From IMG/VR virus record IMGVR_UViG_2698536435_000005: a stretch of 4,503 nucleotides of DNA. The stretch is one strand, 5' to 3'. The position numbers and the translations under genes are program-made. The notes beneath the pieces are model-generated. The model was given only the letters and a program-made list of their open reading frames with translations, searched no databases and had not been told where the DNA came from. Origin of the DNA: a virus. Lineage: Duplodnaviria > Heunggongvirae > Uroviricota > Caudoviricetes. Shown here one piece after another: positions 1 through 4,503 of this stretch (positions are counted from its first letter, which is position 1; each line of letters starts with the position of its first letter).

Positions 1-25
1 GGGAAAAATATCATCAGATGGCTGC

Positions 26-379
26 TTAAAAAAAGAACAAATGGTAGTGTCCGCTATTGCCAGTACACCTCAATTGCTCTGCGGCTTCGCTCAGAGCTGG
101 CGTATGTTCCCGGCCTACTGATTCACACAGGTAATCAACGAAACCGGACACCAGTTTTCGTTCGCGAGGCGTGATCGCCCCACCGACCGGAGTCCAGTAA
201 TCGAAACCCAGTTGCAGGAGTTTGAAAAAACGCTTGTGGAATGCGTAGTTACACACACGCTTAAAGTCTGCGTGTATCCACTCACCTATTTTGATTTGAT
301 GCAGAAAATCGCAACTCTCCGGCGTCGCCGGGAGAAGTAATCCGGAAGAGGTTTGTTTGACCAGTTGTATATGTGCCAT
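26..379 (-). CDS. hypothetical protein (117 aa from ATG at 379; the track ORF extends to a TTG at 421). Second gene of a two-gene cassette, Cys/His-rich, no family recognised
   Basis: Open frame ending at TAA 26-28. The ATG at 377-379 is preceded by GGAG with a 7-nt spacer (minus strand CCGGAGAAAGCCG-ATG). The alternative TTG at 421 overlaps the upstream stop as TTGA but has no comparable SD. Start choice is uncertain. Confidence 0.5.
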   Translation of the reverse strand: MAHIQLVKQTSSGLLLPATPESCDFLHQIKIGEWIHADFKRVCNYAFHKRFFKLLQLGFDYWTPVGGAITPRERKLVSGFVDYLCESVGREHTPALSEAAEQLRCTGNSGHYHLFFF

Positions 380-417
380 CGGCTTTCTCCGGTGGCACGG
401 TGTTACACAGCAGGAGT

Positions 418-705
418 TCAATCCTGCTCAAGATTGTAGATGAGTTTATTCTTCAGCAAAAGCAGAAAACCAGCCTTAAAACCAATCTCTTTCAAAACCC
501 GTAATGATGTGACAAATTCGTCCTCACGCAAAATAAAACCGTCCGTCAGAAGTCCATTACAAAAATAAAATAACACAGCACCGCTCTTCCTTTGTTGAGA
601 TTGCAAACATCTAATGCGGCAATGGCTGACAATCGCTCCATTCTCAACGCGCACAGCATAGAGGCCATTTTCACTAAAAATTTCACGCAATTCTTCGATT
701 TTCAT
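418..705 (-). CDS. hypothetical protein (95 aa), first gene of the two-gene cassette downstream of hok
   Basis: ATG at 703-705 preceded by GGAAGGA with a ~8-nt spacer; TGA stop at 418-420 overlaps the next start region. Sits downstream of a sigma70-like promoter at 787-814. No family recognised from sequence. Confidence 0.55.
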   Translation of the reverse strand: MKIEELREIFSENGLYAVRVENGAIVSHCRIRCLQSQQRKSGAVLFYFCNGLLTDGFILREDEFVTSLRVLKEIGFKAGFLLLLKNKLIYNLEQD

Positions 706-786
706 CTTCAGAATCCTTCCAGATAAATAGCTCTCCCCTGTTCGGGGTCCATCCCTCTTCTCCCTGCGCGCTACTTAAGTGAGTCG

Positions 787-814
787 ATTCTATCTGCGAA
801 GGTGCGCGAATCAA
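787..814 (-). promoter_or_regulatory. sigma70-like promoter for the downstream two-gene cassette (-35 TTGATT, 16-nt spacer, -10 TAGAAT)
   Basis: Minus-strand TTGATT (revcomp of + 809-814) and TAGAAT (revcomp of + 787-792), just past the hok terminator and ~80 nt upstream of the ATG at 705. Uses the same two hexamers as the hok promoter. Confidence 0.4.
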
Positions 815-825
815 ATTCACCGGAA

Positions 826-877
826 ATAAACAACAAAAAACCCGCCGAAACGCTGAGAGATCACAGCGATGGGCGGG
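826..877 (-). terminator. rho-independent terminator at the 3' end of the hok transcript
   Basis: Minus-strand RNA CCCGCC-CAU-CGCUG-UGAUCUCU-CAGCG-UUUC-GGCGGG (nested GC-rich stems, + 841-877) followed directly by UUUUUUGUUGUUUAUUU (+ 826-840). Confidence 0.6.
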
Positions 878-881
878 TTAA

Positions 882-946
882 GTGCGGGTGCGTTGAGGAT
901 GCCTGACACATCAGAGGTGGGCGGGGATGGGATCAGCTCCCCGCCC
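882..946 (-). promoter_or_regulatory. hok mRNA 3' fold-back region: stem-loop plus an fbi-like element complementary to the mRNA 5' end
   Basis: Perfect 9-bp stem GGGCGGGGA / TCCCCGCCC with a 10-nt loop (919-946), 9 nt after the hok stop. Plus-strand 886-898 GGGTGCGTTGAGG matches the minus-strand leader start GGGTGCTTGAGGC (+ 1268-1280) apart from one extra base, so the mRNA 3' region can pair with its own 5' end as in the fbi/tac arrangement of plasmid R1 hok mRNA. Confidence 0.45.
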
Positions 947-954
947 GGTCACTC

Positions 955-1110
955 TTACTTCCTGGATTCGTAGTCTACGAAGACAGCGACCTCCGTCTGG
1001 CCGGTTCGGATTCGTACCTCACAGAGGTCTTTCCTCGTTACCAGTGCCGTCACTATGACGGTTAAACAGATGACGATCAGGGCGATTAACATCGCCTTTT
1101 GCTGCTTCAT
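955..1110 (-). CDS. hokD: Hok/Gef-family type I toxin (51 aa): MKQQKAMLIALIVICLTVIVTALVTRKDLCEVRIRTGQTEVAVFVDYESRK
   Basis: From memory, near-identical over the first ~45 residues to E. coli HokD (RelF) and Gef (HokC), with a single TM helix and the conserved RKDLCE motif. ATG at 1108-1110 is preceded by AAGGAG with a 9-nt spacer; TAA at 955-957. The frame is open in-frame upstream to an ATG at 1167 (70-aa track ORF), which I read as a mok-like frame fused in-frame to hok. Confidence 0.85.
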   Translation of the reverse strand: MKQQKAMLIALIVICLTVIVTALVTRKDLCEVRIRTGQTEVAVFVDYESRK

Positions 1111-1114
1111 AGCC

Positions 1115-1200
1115 TGCTTCTCCTTGCCTTTCGGCATGTAAGAGGCTAACCTACATGTGCAAAGCATGAAATTGGCCTCAGATTAATGTTAAGCGTCTTG
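1115..1200 (+). ncRNA. candidate Sok-like antisense RNA region (approximate coordinates, not resolved)
   Basis: Inference only. In hok/sok loci Sok is transcribed antisense across the mok start region; here the mok-like ATG (1167) and its GAGG SD lie ~114 nt into the predicted hok mRNA. I could not pin a convincing plus-strand -35/-10 pair or terminator. Confidence 0.25.
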
Positions 1201-1286
1201 CCGGACGCGTAATGTTAACTGGGGCTTTTCTCTATCTGCCTTTTGGTGTTCATGCCTGAAGCAGATAGCCTCAAGCACCCGCAGTC

Positions 1287-1316
1287 ATTCTACTTACCTC
1301 GCCAATATGAAATCAA
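1287..1316 (-). promoter_or_regulatory. hok promoter (-35 TTGATT, 18-nt spacer, -10 TAGAAT)
   Basis: Minus-strand TTGATT (revcomp of + 1311-1316) and TAGAAT (revcomp of + 1287-1292), ~7 nt upstream of GGGTGCTTGAGGCTATCTGC. That leader start resembles, from memory, the 5' end of R1 hok mRNA (GGCGCUUGAGGCUUUCUGCC). Lies 22 nt downstream of the QueH-like stop. Confidence 0.5.
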
Positions 1317-1337
1317 TCAGAAAGGTGCCCCATAAAA

Positions 1338-2024
1338 TCACTCCTTCTCTTCTTTACCGTAGTGGAGTTGACCAATTTTGATAAGAGGGCGTCCCTGAGA
1401 TTTGCGGTGTAGATTGGTATCGCGCAGAGAATACACACAGCCACAATATTCCTGCTGATAGAATTTTTCGCGCTTGCTGATTTCAATCATACGGGACGAG
1501 CCGCCCTGCTTGCGCCAGTTATAATCCCAGTACACCATGCCCGGATAATGCGCGACGGCTCGCCGCCCACAGTCGTTAACCTGCTGCATATTTTTCCAGC
1601 GTGAAATGCCCAGTGAACTGCTGATCACACTGAAACCATTTTCAGCGGCGTACAGCGCTGTCCGCTCAAAACGCATGTCAAAACACATGGTGCAACGGAT
1701 CCCTCGTTCGGGCTCCCATTCCATTCCTTTGGCTCGTTCAAACCAGTTGTCTGTGTCGTAATCAGCATCAATAAACGGCACGCCGTGTTGTTCAGCAAAG
1801 CGAATATTCTCATCCTTACGAATTAAATACTCTTTCTGAGGATGAATGTTCGGGTTGTAGAAAAAGATGGTGTAGTCGATTCCCGAGGCCTGAAGCGCCT
1901 CCATCACCTCACCGGAACATGGAGCACAGCAAGAGTGCAGTAGTAGTTTGTTTGCCCCGTTTGGGAGCTCCAATTTGGGCCGTTTGAAATCAGCAACTGT
2001 CATAAATATGTTTATTGGGGTCAT
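1338..2024 (-). CDS. queH: QueH-like protein (DUF208, putative epoxyqueuosine reductase family), 228 aa, Cys-rich
   Basis: N-terminal [11 protein letters not shown] motif, which I recall as the DUF208/QueH signature, plus further Cys pairs (RCTMCF, YCGCV). TGA stop at 1338-1340. Neither the first ATG (2024) nor the in-frame ATG eight codons later has a recognisable SD, so the start is uncertain. Family call is from motif recall, not alignment. Confidence 0.6.
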
Positions 2025-2171
2025 AAAAATATCAAAGAGTGTAGCATTAGAACGGGGCTATCGGAAACAGATGTGTGACTGCTCCCCGCCCTTTCGGGTG
2101 GTCTCCTGATGATTTGAGGGTGCAGAAATCCCTCCGGTTAAGGATTAAATTTTTAACAGTGCTAAATTTAA

Positions 2172-2585
2172 TTATTCAGTTCTGGATTTTGTCGCCCTGC
2201 GTATCCGCGCTTTCGCGTTACGCTCAATCTGTATCAGCTTTTCTATATTTCTCCGCCTTTCCTGTTCCTCCTGGCGCAATAGCCTTACATCATCTGCCAG
2301 TCTGGTTTCTCTTTTTGCCACAGAGAGCATCCAGTCAAACGGCTCCACAACCGCACCGCAGATTTTACAGCGGACCTGACGCTCTTTTTCGTCAACCCGT
2401 ACAGAGGCGTGATGGCAATATGGTCTTTCCGATGGCTCATAAAGAAAATTAACCTGATTACGAGGGTTATCCTCTTTTACCGGAAATAAAACAATATTGC
2501 TTAACTCATCTTCTGGTTTTATTTCCATGCTCCTCTCCTTTGATGCGAATGCCAGCGGTAATTGAAGCCTGATAGCTAATTTCAT
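2172..2585 (-). CDS. hypothetical small protein with a putative Zn-ribbon (C-H-H...C-x-x-C) and a basic, coiled-coil-like C-terminus; alternative start at 2528 gives 119 aa
   Basis: The ATG at 2583-2585 abuts the upstream TGA (TGAATG). The in-frame ATG at 2526-2528 has a stronger RBS (AAGGAG, 6-nt spacer). Motif PYCHHASVRVDEKERQVRCKICG; C-terminus rich in R/K/E/Q. Confidence 0.55.
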   Translation of the reverse strand: MKLAIRLQLPLAFASKERSMEIKPEDELSNIVLFPVKEDNPRNQVNFLYEPSERPYCHHASVRVDEKERQVRCKICGAVVEPFDWMLSVAKRETRLADDVRLLRQEEQERRRNIEKLIQIERNAKARIRRATKSRTE

Positions 2586-3008
2586 TCACAGTATCGCCTC
2601 CTGAAAATTACCCTGATAGAAAGCCAGTACACGCTGCATAGCTTCGCTCTTCCGGCACTCGCGACAGATTATATTCAGGCGCCTGTCGTAGCGGCGTATT
2701 TCTCCGTCAGGTAATGACCAGATAAGGTCCGGATCAACAACAACCGGTTTCCTCACCTTTACTCTCGAGAGTTTTTTGCGGGCGCTTTGCCAGTCCTTGC
2801 GAGCCTGTTCAGACGGGAATAAGCCGTAGCCAGAATTATATACATCACCACTTGCGACCAGTTCTATGCATAAGCGACCGACAGACGCACGACTGATACC
2901 TGTTTCATCTGACAACTGCCGAATCGTGACCCGACCGTCCTGATGCACGAGTTCCACAATTCGCGTCTTCAGTTCTTCCCGCTGTTCGGGAGTAAAAGGT
3001 TTCGCCAT
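2586..3008 (-). CDS. ren: HTH protein, probably Ren-like (lambda ren family), 140 aa
   Basis: Sits immediately after the P-equivalent gene, as ren does in lambda. The C-terminal motif CRECRKSEAMQRVLAFY resembles what I recall of lambda Ren (KECRQSAAMKRVLAVY), and the N-terminus has a helix-turn-helix-like segment (TIRQLSDETGISRASVGRL). AGGAGG 4 nt upstream of the ATG at 3008. Confidence 0.6.
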   Translation of the reverse strand: MAKPFTPEQREELKTRIVELVHQDGRVTIRQLSDETGISRASVGRLCIELVASGDVYNSGYGLFPSEQARKDWQSARKKLSRVKVRKPVVVDPDLIWSLPDGEIRRYDRRLNIICRECRKSEAMQRVLAFYQGNFQEAIL

Positions 3009-3022
3009 AAATCCTCCTGAAA

Positions 3023-3769
3023 CTACTTAACAACCCTCGAATGGCTAACATTCGGACGCCAGCTCTCCCAGTTAAAATTCACCCAGCGCCCGCCGTTCAT
3101 GACCATGCGATCCATCACCCGCTCGCCGAGCAATGTTTTCATCACCTCATAGTTCAGGTTTGTCAGCATCCCCACGCTGCGCATCGACGCTGTCCGGCGA
3201 TCAACAATCTGGTGCAGCACCACCTGCTCGTTTTTCGTCTCGCGCTGAATGCCAATTTCATCAAGAACCAGCAGATCCACTTCGCACAGCTCCCGCAAAA
3301 ATTTTTCGCCTGACTGCCCGTCGTCATAGCTGGCGTGCAGGGCGCTCATAACATCAGCCACGGTAACCACAATCACTGTCTGACCGTCTTTCAGCAGGCG
3401 ATTCCCGATAGCTGCCGCTAAGTGATTCTTCCCGGTACCAGGTTTTCCGCTGAACGCAAAATTTGTACACCCGGTCATCAGTTCATCGGCGATGGATTTC
3501 GCCTGGCTTAACGCGTATCGCTGGCCGTCGTTCTGCACCTGGTAATTCGCAAACGAGCATTTACGGTGCAACGGCTGGATGCCTGAGCGATTCAGAATTT
3601 TTTCCACCCGCAACTGGCGATTCAGGCGGTTGATCTCCTCGCTACGTTTCTGGCCTTCAGCAAGTTGCCACTCGCGCCACTCCGCTACCGTTCTGAATGG
3701 GGCGGTTACATGTGGCGGGGTCAGTCGGCGGATGCGTTCCAGAACGCCGCCTGTCGCAATATTTTTCAT
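3023..3769 (-). CDS. dnaC: DnaC-family AAA+ helicase loader (phage P-equivalent replication protein), 248 aa
   Basis: Clear similarity to E. coli DnaC along the whole length, from memory: Walker A FSGKPGTGKNHLAAAIG, Walker B DLLVLDEIG, and RSGIQPLH...CSFANY and MLTNLNYEVM...LGERVMDRM blocks. ATG at 3767-3769 follows the upstream TAA (3776-3778) by two codons. Confidence 0.9.
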   Translation of the reverse strand: MKNIATGGVLERIRRLTPPHVTAPFRTVAEWREWQLAEGQKRSEEINRLNRQLRVEKILNRSGIQPLHRKCSFANYQVQNDGQRYALSQAKSIADELMTGCTNFAFSGKPGTGKNHLAAAIGNRLLKDGQTVIVVTVADVMSALHASYDDGQSGEKFLRELCEVDLLVLDEIGIQRETKNEQVVLHQIVDRRTASMRSVGMLTNLNYEVMKTLLGERVMDRMVMNGGRWVNFNWESWRPNVSHSRVVK

Positions 3770-4123
3770 GGTCCGTTACCCCCTGAAGCCTGGCGGGATC
3801 GCACTGTCCGGCAACGAGACGGTGTTAACCTGTCGGAGCAACGTCTCAGGCCGAACACCTTTCGGCGCGAACAGGCCCTGGTATTCATTGGCGATGCTGT
3901 GTCGAATCACCTGCTCAGGTGTAAAACCCTGCTGACGGAATTTTTCCAGTTCCCGTATCGCCCCGTTAGCGCCCTGCTCCGTTCGAATCGGTTTTCGCAA
4001 TGCCTGTCTGAACCGGACCCACTCATGCCAGAGTGTTTCCGGCAACCAATCGGGCAGCTCAATAGCCTCCGGCTCGAATTTTTTAGACGCTCGTTTTTGG
4101 CGAGGGGGAGATCAGTATTTAGA

Positions 4124-4174
4124 TCTTCCTCTTCCTCTTCCTCTTCCTCTTCCTCTTCCTCTTCCTCTTCCTCT
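4124..4174. repeat. perfect hexanucleotide tandem repeat (TCTTCC)8 + TCT on plus, (GAAGAG)n on minus; encodes Glu16 in minus frame B
   Basis: Read directly: 8.5 identical units with no interruptions, 51 bp. Confidence 0.95.
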
Positions 4175-4198
4175 GGTAACGCTTTTTGATCCGTTTGT

Positions 4199-4217
4199 GT
4201 AACGCTGGCAGCGTTAC
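4199..4217. repeat. perfect 19-bp palindrome GTAACGCTG-G-CAGCGTTAC (dyad GTAACGC-N5-GCGTTAC), with an extra direct half-site GTAACGC at 4176-4182
   Basis: Read directly. Lies inside the initiator gene just upstream (minus sense) of the hexamer repeat. Candidate protein-binding site (iteron or operator). Confidence 0.5.
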
Positions 4218-4406
4218 CTTTTCGTTTCAGTTCGCGTATTTTTGTTACTCGCTCGTTTGTAACCGCCCGTTTTTTTTAGAGCTTTTTCCGTTATGACGTT
4301 CAAAGTTAGGTAGAGAAAGCCCTCCGTCATTTTCGACCAGCCATCCAACCTGAATTAACGCATCAGCAAAACCAGACATAAAAGTGATGCGATCTATTGC
4401 ACTTTT

Positions 4407-4427
4407 TGTAACGCCGCGAGCGTTACA
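4407..4427. repeat. second copy of the same dyad: TGTAACGC-CGCGA-GCGTTACA
   Basis: Read directly. Shares the GTAACGC-N5-GCGTTAC half-sites and spacing with the 4199-4217 palindrome, ~210 bp away, inside the initiator N-terminal coding segment. Confidence 0.5.
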
Positions 4428-4503
4428 ATCTGCATTACCGTCTGGATTTGCCCCTATATTTCCAGACATCTGTTATCACTTAACCCATTACAAGCCCGCT
4501 GCC

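Follow-up and report, generated by a model that had tools for sequence, protein, structure and literature searches.

The Qin prophage of Escherichia coli K-12 encodes Rem, a protein shown experimentally to counteract DicA, the repressor of this prophage, as an antirepressor (Ragunathan et al. 2023, PMC10448788). Ectopic Rem increased the activity of a dicBp-lacZ fusion, driven by the DicA-repressed dicB promoter, 165-fold (Ragunathan et al. 2023, PMC10448788). Overproduction of the protein is toxic and causes filamentation, but both effects disappear when either Qin or dicB/dicF is deleted (PMC10448788), hence Rem is a regulator rather than a toxin. The signal inducing Rem was stated to be unknown (Ragunathan et al. 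2023, PMC10448788).

Similarly, the Gifsy prophages of Salmonella are induced by small antirepressors, expressed from a LexA-controlled operon consisting of dinI, the antirepressor gene and, directly downstream of the latter, irsA (PMC3121763). Those encoded by Gifsy-1, -2 and -3 and by Fels-1 have been named GfoA, GftA, GfhA and FsoA, and antirepressors of this type act on short, non-cleavable repressors of the GfoR/DicA type (Lemire et al. 2011, PMC3121763). GfoA has been tied to Rem in the literature only via a PSI-BLAST intermediate (PMC10448788).

The locus considered here lies within a 4,503 nt stretch of viral DNA (IMG/VR record IMGVR_UViG_2698536435_000005), hereafter the window, in which a preliminary description identified two small genes beside hok as an unassigned cassette. 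These are very probably two genes from the ninR segment of a decayed Rac/Qin-type lambdoid prophage, namely the antirepressor gene rem and a DUF1367/IrsA-family gene broken by IS600. Both genes and their arrangement are already known, and are degraded in this instance by IS elements, such that the replacement of an 'unassigned cassette' by two known genes is of little importance as a discovery, although of some practical value. The points worth following up are confined to the conserved promoter and leader of rem and the recurrent frameshifts at its 3' end.

Prophage context and features of the window

All substantial ORFs of the window are found on the minus strand, and correspond to the early-right/ninR segment of a lambdoid prophage (Table 1). 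The window is an early-right/ninR piece of a Rac/Qin-type prophage in decay, with IS600 at one boundary and IS2 at the other. Among intact relatives, the closest is a prophage of the same type in E. coli FDAARGOS_944 (L002), which is about 99% identical over positions 73-4443. In this prophage, rem is followed by genes for DUF1367, ybcO (DUF1364) and DUF1133 (a Q-like antiterminator), then by tRNAs and lysis genes, with YdaT, Cro and a 135 aa helix-turn-helix repressor encoded on the upstream side. This repressor is DicA-like, with 62% identity to K-12 DicA.

Table 1. Features of the window, with positions numbered from its first base
Feature	Position	Strand	Evidence
IS600 (IS3-family) right end	1-72	+	identity to annotated IS600 copies
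ORF2 read-through tail, LRCTGNSGHYHLFFF + stop, IS600-encoded, not a phage gene	26-73	-	translation, alignment to intact homologues
DUF1367/IrsA-family 5' fragment, codons 1-102 of about 199, pseudogene	74-379	-	Pfam PF07105, phrog_319, alignment
GGAG Shine-Dalgarno of DUF1367, 7 nt upstream of ATG 379	387-390	-	sequence reading
rem allele (ORF1), 95 aa	418-705	-	BLASTP to K-12 Rem, phrog_340, PF27490
T4 run with 1 nt deletion (T5 in relatives)	466-469	-	DNA alignment with L033 (6226-6350) and Rac-442/2; protein alignment
rem 5' leader, ~75 nt, short CCCC/GGGG hairpin with variable loop	706-786	-	alignments
GGAAGGA Shine-Dalgarno of rem	714-720	-	sequence reading; kept in nearly all aligned rem loci
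Putative rem promoter, sigma-70-type, TTGATT-16 nt-TAGAAT	787-814	-	pattern scan and conservation
Intrinsic terminator, 3' end of hok transcript	833-879	-	fold -25.1 kcal/mol, z -4.25, then UUUUUUGUUGUUU (U-run)
mok/hok toxin frames (hok 955-1110)	955-1167	-	Pfam HOK_GEF E 9.8e-23; RefSeq hokD annotation in L002
sok	1105-1280		Rfam match
QueH homologue (epoxyqueuosine reductase)	1338-2024	-	Pfam E 1.9e-65
Zinc-ribbon protein	2172-2585	-	phrog_1621; weak TFIIB zinc-ribbon match
DUF977 Ren-like protein	2586-3008	-	
DnaC-like loader	3023-3769	-	
ydaU-like replication gene, fragments	3776-4469	-	
IS2 end, interrupting ydaU-like gene	4443-4503	+	matches annotated IS2 copies; L002 alignment breaks at 4442/4443

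Decay is evident at both ends of the segment. Relative to the intact prophage, the ydaU-like pseudogene has a 10 bp deletion near position 4120, a 2 nt insertion of T near position 4270 and the IS2 insertion at position 4443. Two further genomes (L007 and L008) match window positions 1-4443 with 99.7-99.96% identity and have the same IS600/DUF1367 junction. In both, an integrase fragment and then the mod/gal genes lie beyond this IS600, hence the whole late region has been lost. The DicA-like repressor gene lies outside the window, and is intact in L008, where its product is identical to that of the FDAARGOS_944 prophage at 135/135 residues; such near-identical genomes suggest that the source strain would also carry it.

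A number of other features of the segment were recorded. The ydaU-like gene contains an array of 8.5 perfect copies of the hexanucleotide TCTTCC (positions 4124-4174), encoding poly-Glu on the minus strand and 30 bp longer than that of L002. In L007 and L008, this gene is interrupted by IS600, rather than IS2, inserted 39 bp further on. The QueH homologue lies between the zinc-ribbon ORF, for which RefSeq calls a 118 aa version from an internal Met, and hok; the window contains no other queuosine-pathway genes. Outside the window, the intact relative has an Hfq-binding sRNA of the isrK type (Rfam RF01394; L002:12982-13058) where its Rha-family regulator gene starts, on the left side of the immunity region.

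Identity of the two reading frames

The two small ORFs are present on the minus strand as first described, ORF1 encoding 95 aa and ORF2 either 131 aa from a TTG (positions 26-421) or 117 aa from an ATG (positions 26-379). Each is preceded by a Shine-Dalgarno sequence, and they follow the hairpin and U-run of the hok terminator. However, whereas neither had been assigned to a family, both can be placed in one. The product of ORF1 is 68% identical to K-12 Rem over 80 aligned residues (BLASTP, E 2e-34), and a PHROGs profile search matched both proteins alike to phrog_340. The 95 aa product had no match in local copies of Pfam or NCBIfam, but a protein identical to it, catalogued in Shigella and E. 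coli, has a precomputed match to the Pfam family PF27490 ('Rem'). This identical protein is widespread in assemblies of these bacteria, being reported mainly from Shigella, which makes this genus the likely origin of the window. The allele is labelled 'hypothetical protein' by RefSeq; in GenBank MN652886 the orthologue is annotated as a 'prophage antirepressor' adjoining 'irsA'. The position of ORF1 is likewise that of the family, in the ninR region with the end of hok approximately 250 bp upstream and the start of the downstream gene, an occupant of the Orf slot discussed below, 38 nt away. The lead offered by the preliminary description, that the neighbourhood of hokD in Qin contains rem, is therefore borne out: ORF1 adjoins hok as rem does in Qin and, on these sequence matches, is almost certainly a copy of that gene.

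An AlphaFold2 model of Rem, consisting of an alpha helix, four beta strands and two further alpha helices, is weak (mean pLDDT 63), and a Foldseek search of the PDB with this model returned no structural match (best E 1.1); a sequence search of the PDB with Rem was also negative. A distant Rem-like ORF of 60 aa occupies the same slot in a Klebsiella phage, upstream of DUF968 and Q. Two long repetitive proteins matched by the Rem profile (P0105 and P0120) were treated as spurious, because their Pfam content is unrelated (Big_1, CarboxypepD_reg, mixed). A 127 aa protein from a public collection (P0078) appears to fuse a P22_Cro/YdaS-like N-terminus to Rem residues 5-83, and is probably a deletion chimera, in which a cro-like gene has been joined to rem in some prophage remnant.

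ORF2, described as a gene in its own right, is an incomplete one. Its product matches phrog_319 and, above the gathering score (E 1.5e-46), positions 1-102 of the 198 in the Pfam profile PF07105 (DUF1367). Over residues 1-102 it is the same as the intact protein of the FDAARGOS_944 prophage (WP_000940336, 199 aa) except for R43C, after which the two diverge. The window is 100% identical to annotated IS600 copies over positions 1-79; the terminal inverted repeat of the element ends at base 72, with the stop codon of the transposase at about positions 27-29, and from base 73 onwards the window resembles the intact prophage. The last 15 codons of ORF2 and its stop are therefore IS sequence. The reading frame of approximately 199 aa is broken at 72/73, and by these alignments ORF2 is an ordinary phage gene of the DUF1367/irsA family that has been cut in half by IS600.

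This identification also alters two properties ascribed to the pair. An overlap between the ORFs requires ORF2 to start at the TTG at position 421, but the PF07105 match begins at residue 15 of this 131 aa reading, and the start shared by the DUF1367 profile and every intact homologue is the ATG at position 379, which leaves a 38 nt gap after rem, as in the intact relative; ORF1 itself reaches position 418 only because of a 1 nt deletion in a run of T. Furthermore, the second protein is not characteristically rich in Cys and His, as these residues constitute 11.5% of the 131 aa reading but 4.5% of the intact 199 aa protein, the excess being attributable to the spurious N-terminal extension, the R43C change and the IS-derived tail.

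The full 199 aa DUF1367 gene is widespread in the ninR regions of Vibrio, Pseudomonas and enterobacterial phages, and STM1020, the irsA homologue of Gifsy-2, has 53% identity to the intact protein that corresponds to the fragment in L002. The label given by PHROGs to phrog_319, NinB/Orf recombination mediator, is also that of the PHROG containing lambda NinB. Direct comparison of DUF1367 with lambda NinB (Orf, PDB 1PC6) gave an hhalign probability of 0.1%, and sequence and profile searches found no match for DUF1367 among PDB sequences; the AlphaFold model (pLDDT 47) was unusable for fold comparison.

Promoter, leader and 3' end of rem

The preliminary description had proposed that the pair possesses its own promoter, consisting of the hexamers TTGATT and TAGAAT. 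By count alone, a single such site is at the level of chance, two promoter-like sites being found in the window against 1.7 expected, and for this reason approximately 100 rem loci were gathered from genomes and viral contigs and their upstream regions, 45 of which were distinct, were aligned. The pattern TTGAnn, a spacer of 16-17 nt and TAGAAT is kept in nearly all of these 45 regions, which bears out the proposal. Several unrelated spacer sequences occur, and the hexamers are kept even where DNA other than hok lies upstream; such conservation of the hexamers amid variation in the spacer and upstream DNA would be expected if the promoter works, and supports the candidate as such. Conservation of the promoter and leader extends across loci with different immunity types and upstream DNA, and in divergent pairs of rem loci the identity is higher in the leader (0.83) than in the coding sequence (0.75) or further upstream (0.70).

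Folded as a single sequence, the leader is no more stable than shuffled versions (z +0.88); an alignment-based fold yielded one compensatory pair, with little variation to test, and it contains no Rfam family, sok being the sole Rfam match. Three candidate regulatory features were rejected. Searching the window for CTGT-N8-ACAG, with at most one mismatch, gave two matches (positions 2900 and 3859), which is the level of chance, and neither lies near rem, disfavouring control by LexA. The leader shares no motif of 8 nt or longer with the dicC-dicA-type intergenic region of either the window-type or the K-12 prophage, as might have been expected of a DicA operator. An upstream ORF is present in the window's leader (MDPEQGRAIYLEGF) but, with only 3-8 codons at other loci, is not conserved at the peptide level.

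At the other end of the gene, the 1 nt deletion in the run of T shifts the rem frame after residue 80. The ending GFSAFAEE-stop of the 86 aa in-frame allele thereby becomes GFLLLLKNKLIYNLEQD-stop in the 95 aa protein, the SAFAEE tail having been exchanged for LLLLKNKLIYNLEQD. Six residues are thus replaced by 15 unrelated ones and the acidic C-terminus is lost, as is the tail GFSAFxxE that most members of the family keep. The activity of the allele may therefore be reduced or abolished.

The most serious alternative to a functional antirepressor gene is accordingly that the rem of the window is a dead remnant, inactivated by this deletion, with no function remaining beyond hok/sok and a persistence reflecting recent IS-driven decay. 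Such a history would fit the loss of a conserved tail, the presence of pseudogenes on either side of the region (DUF1367 cut by IS600 and the multiply damaged ydaU-like gene) and the finding that a second rem lineage (P0044/P0045) has independently shifted into the same alternative frame. It is nevertheless somewhat unlikely, given that residues 1-80 are intact, including the most conserved motif, GF-LR-DEFVTSL, which is common to distant homologues of 60-70 aa; that no change is seen in the promoter, leader or Shine-Dalgarno sequence; that the frameshifted T4 allele is common in its lineage, being found in 23 IMG/VR contigs against two with the in-frame T5 allele of the same sequence type; and that the tails of distant homologues vary. 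Because the conserved core survives, the frameshifted allele probably still acts as an antirepressor.

A further, more speculative suggestion, which we regard as doubtful, starts from the greater conservation of the rem promoter and leader: these might form a cis-regulatory element, either an operator or an RNA element with the small CCCC/GGGG hairpin, that senses the inducing signal of DicA-type prophages. Separately, and equally doubtfully, selection might have favoured the recurrent 3' frameshifts in Shigella because they tune or disable induction. Whatever the merit of these ideas, a search for the signal that induces Rem would most naturally begin with the conserved promoter and leader.

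The gene following rem and comparison with known antirepressor systems

The preliminary description proposed that the co-occurrence of the two genes be examined across prophages. Distinct rem neighbourhoods with sufficient flanking sequence numbered 71, among which the next gene was YdfU/DUF968 in 52, DUF1367 in 18 and another gene in one; rem is thus immediately upstream of DUF1367 or DUF968 in 70/71. hok was found no more than 600 bp upstream of rem in 52/71. DUF968 proteins have been characterised as fusions between an Orf-like domain and an HNH nuclease (Curtis et al. 2014, PMC4118853); given this, and the NinB/Orf label of DUF1367 in PHROGs, rem appears to precede an 'Orf slot' in the ninR region, the occupant of which is exchangeable. 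With DUF1367 it does not form a fixed, conserved pair.

These neighbourhoods bear on the possibility that rem and DUF1367/irsA constitute a functional unit resembling the dinI-antirepressor-irsA operon of Gifsy, with IrsA modulating induction. An antirepressor gene followed by irsA is indeed the order in Gifsy-1, -2 and -3 and in the type of prophage represented by the window, and the interval between the two genes is short (38-99 nt) and lacks a convincing terminator. However, Gifsy induction was unaffected by non-polar deletions of irsA (PMC3121763), a result that speaks against a Rem-IrsA unit; most rem genes precede YdfU/DUF968 instead; the Rem of K-12 functions although Qin has no DUF1367 gene; and DUF1367 has been destroyed in the window. 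Such a unit is therefore highly improbable. Weaker still, to the point of being barely credible, is the original suggestion that the ORFs make up an autonomous cassette for toxin-antitoxin activity, superinfection exclusion or anti-phage defence: a pair of small neighbouring genes under a conserved promoter of their own, located beside hok/sok in a part of the prophage that varies, one of them homologous to a protein toxic on overproduction (PMC10448788), might have this appearance, but the reading is unsupported because neither protein matches a PADLOC model, the partner of rem varies and Rem toxicity needs dicBF, while no toxin-antitoxin family was found for either protein in Pfam or NCBIfam, both instead belong to known phage families, ORF2 is a truncated copy of a widespread ninR gene and the overlap of the two ORFs is an artefact.

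The preferred reading is that of an antirepressor gene in a shrinking prophage, and it draws directly on the gene identities, the IS junction, the frameshift, the conservation of the promoter and the variability of the downstream partner. In this scheme rem would have a sigma-70 promoter to itself, immediately beyond the hok terminator, and be transcribed through the conserved leader, and its product would, by homology to K-12 Rem, be a small antirepressor. The protein is predicted to bind and inactivate its prophage's own immunity repressor, a short, non-cleavable protein of the DicA type, and thereby to derepress the remaining early genes (cro/ydaT-like). That this allele still has such an activity, and that the DicA-like repressor is its target, are extrapolated from sequence. 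DUF1367 has been destroyed by IS600, and the deletion of all late genes in the closest genomes is marked by this copy of the element. The remnant in Shigella-type genomes has lost its late genes but retained rem, hok/sok and the DicA-like repressor, providing a simple system in which to ask whether the host still uses the repressor/antirepressor switch.

The closest described counterpart is K-12 Rem (b1561) of Qin, with which the similarity extends over residues 1-80 of the window's protein. Both genes are found in the same position, about 220-250 bp downstream of hok, with the same -10 hexamer and nearly identical 5' leaders, and both types of prophage encode a DicA-type repressor, which in that of the window is a 135 aa protein only 62% identical to DicA itself. 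The two Rem proteins differ by a 4-residue insertion (the SQQR region) and in their C-termini, SAFSGE in K-12 corresponding to the frameshifted 15-residue tail, while the downstream gene is YdfU/DUF968 in Qin but DUF1367 in the window.

The resemblance to the Gifsy prophages is one of arrangement rather than of antirepressor sequence. Rem and GftA have no detectable sequence similarity (hhalign probability 0.2%), and whereas the Gifsy operon begins with dinI and is controlled by LexA, the window has hok/mok/sok upstream instead and no LexA box at the rem promoter. Of the DUF1367/IrsA protein, only the part matching profile positions 1-102 remains in the window, the C-terminal half being absent. 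Nevertheless, in both cases a small antirepressor ORF precedes irsA, as STM1020.1n precedes STM1020 in Gifsy-2 and rem precedes DUF1367 in the window, and in both the antirepressor occupies a slot between the replication genes and Q.
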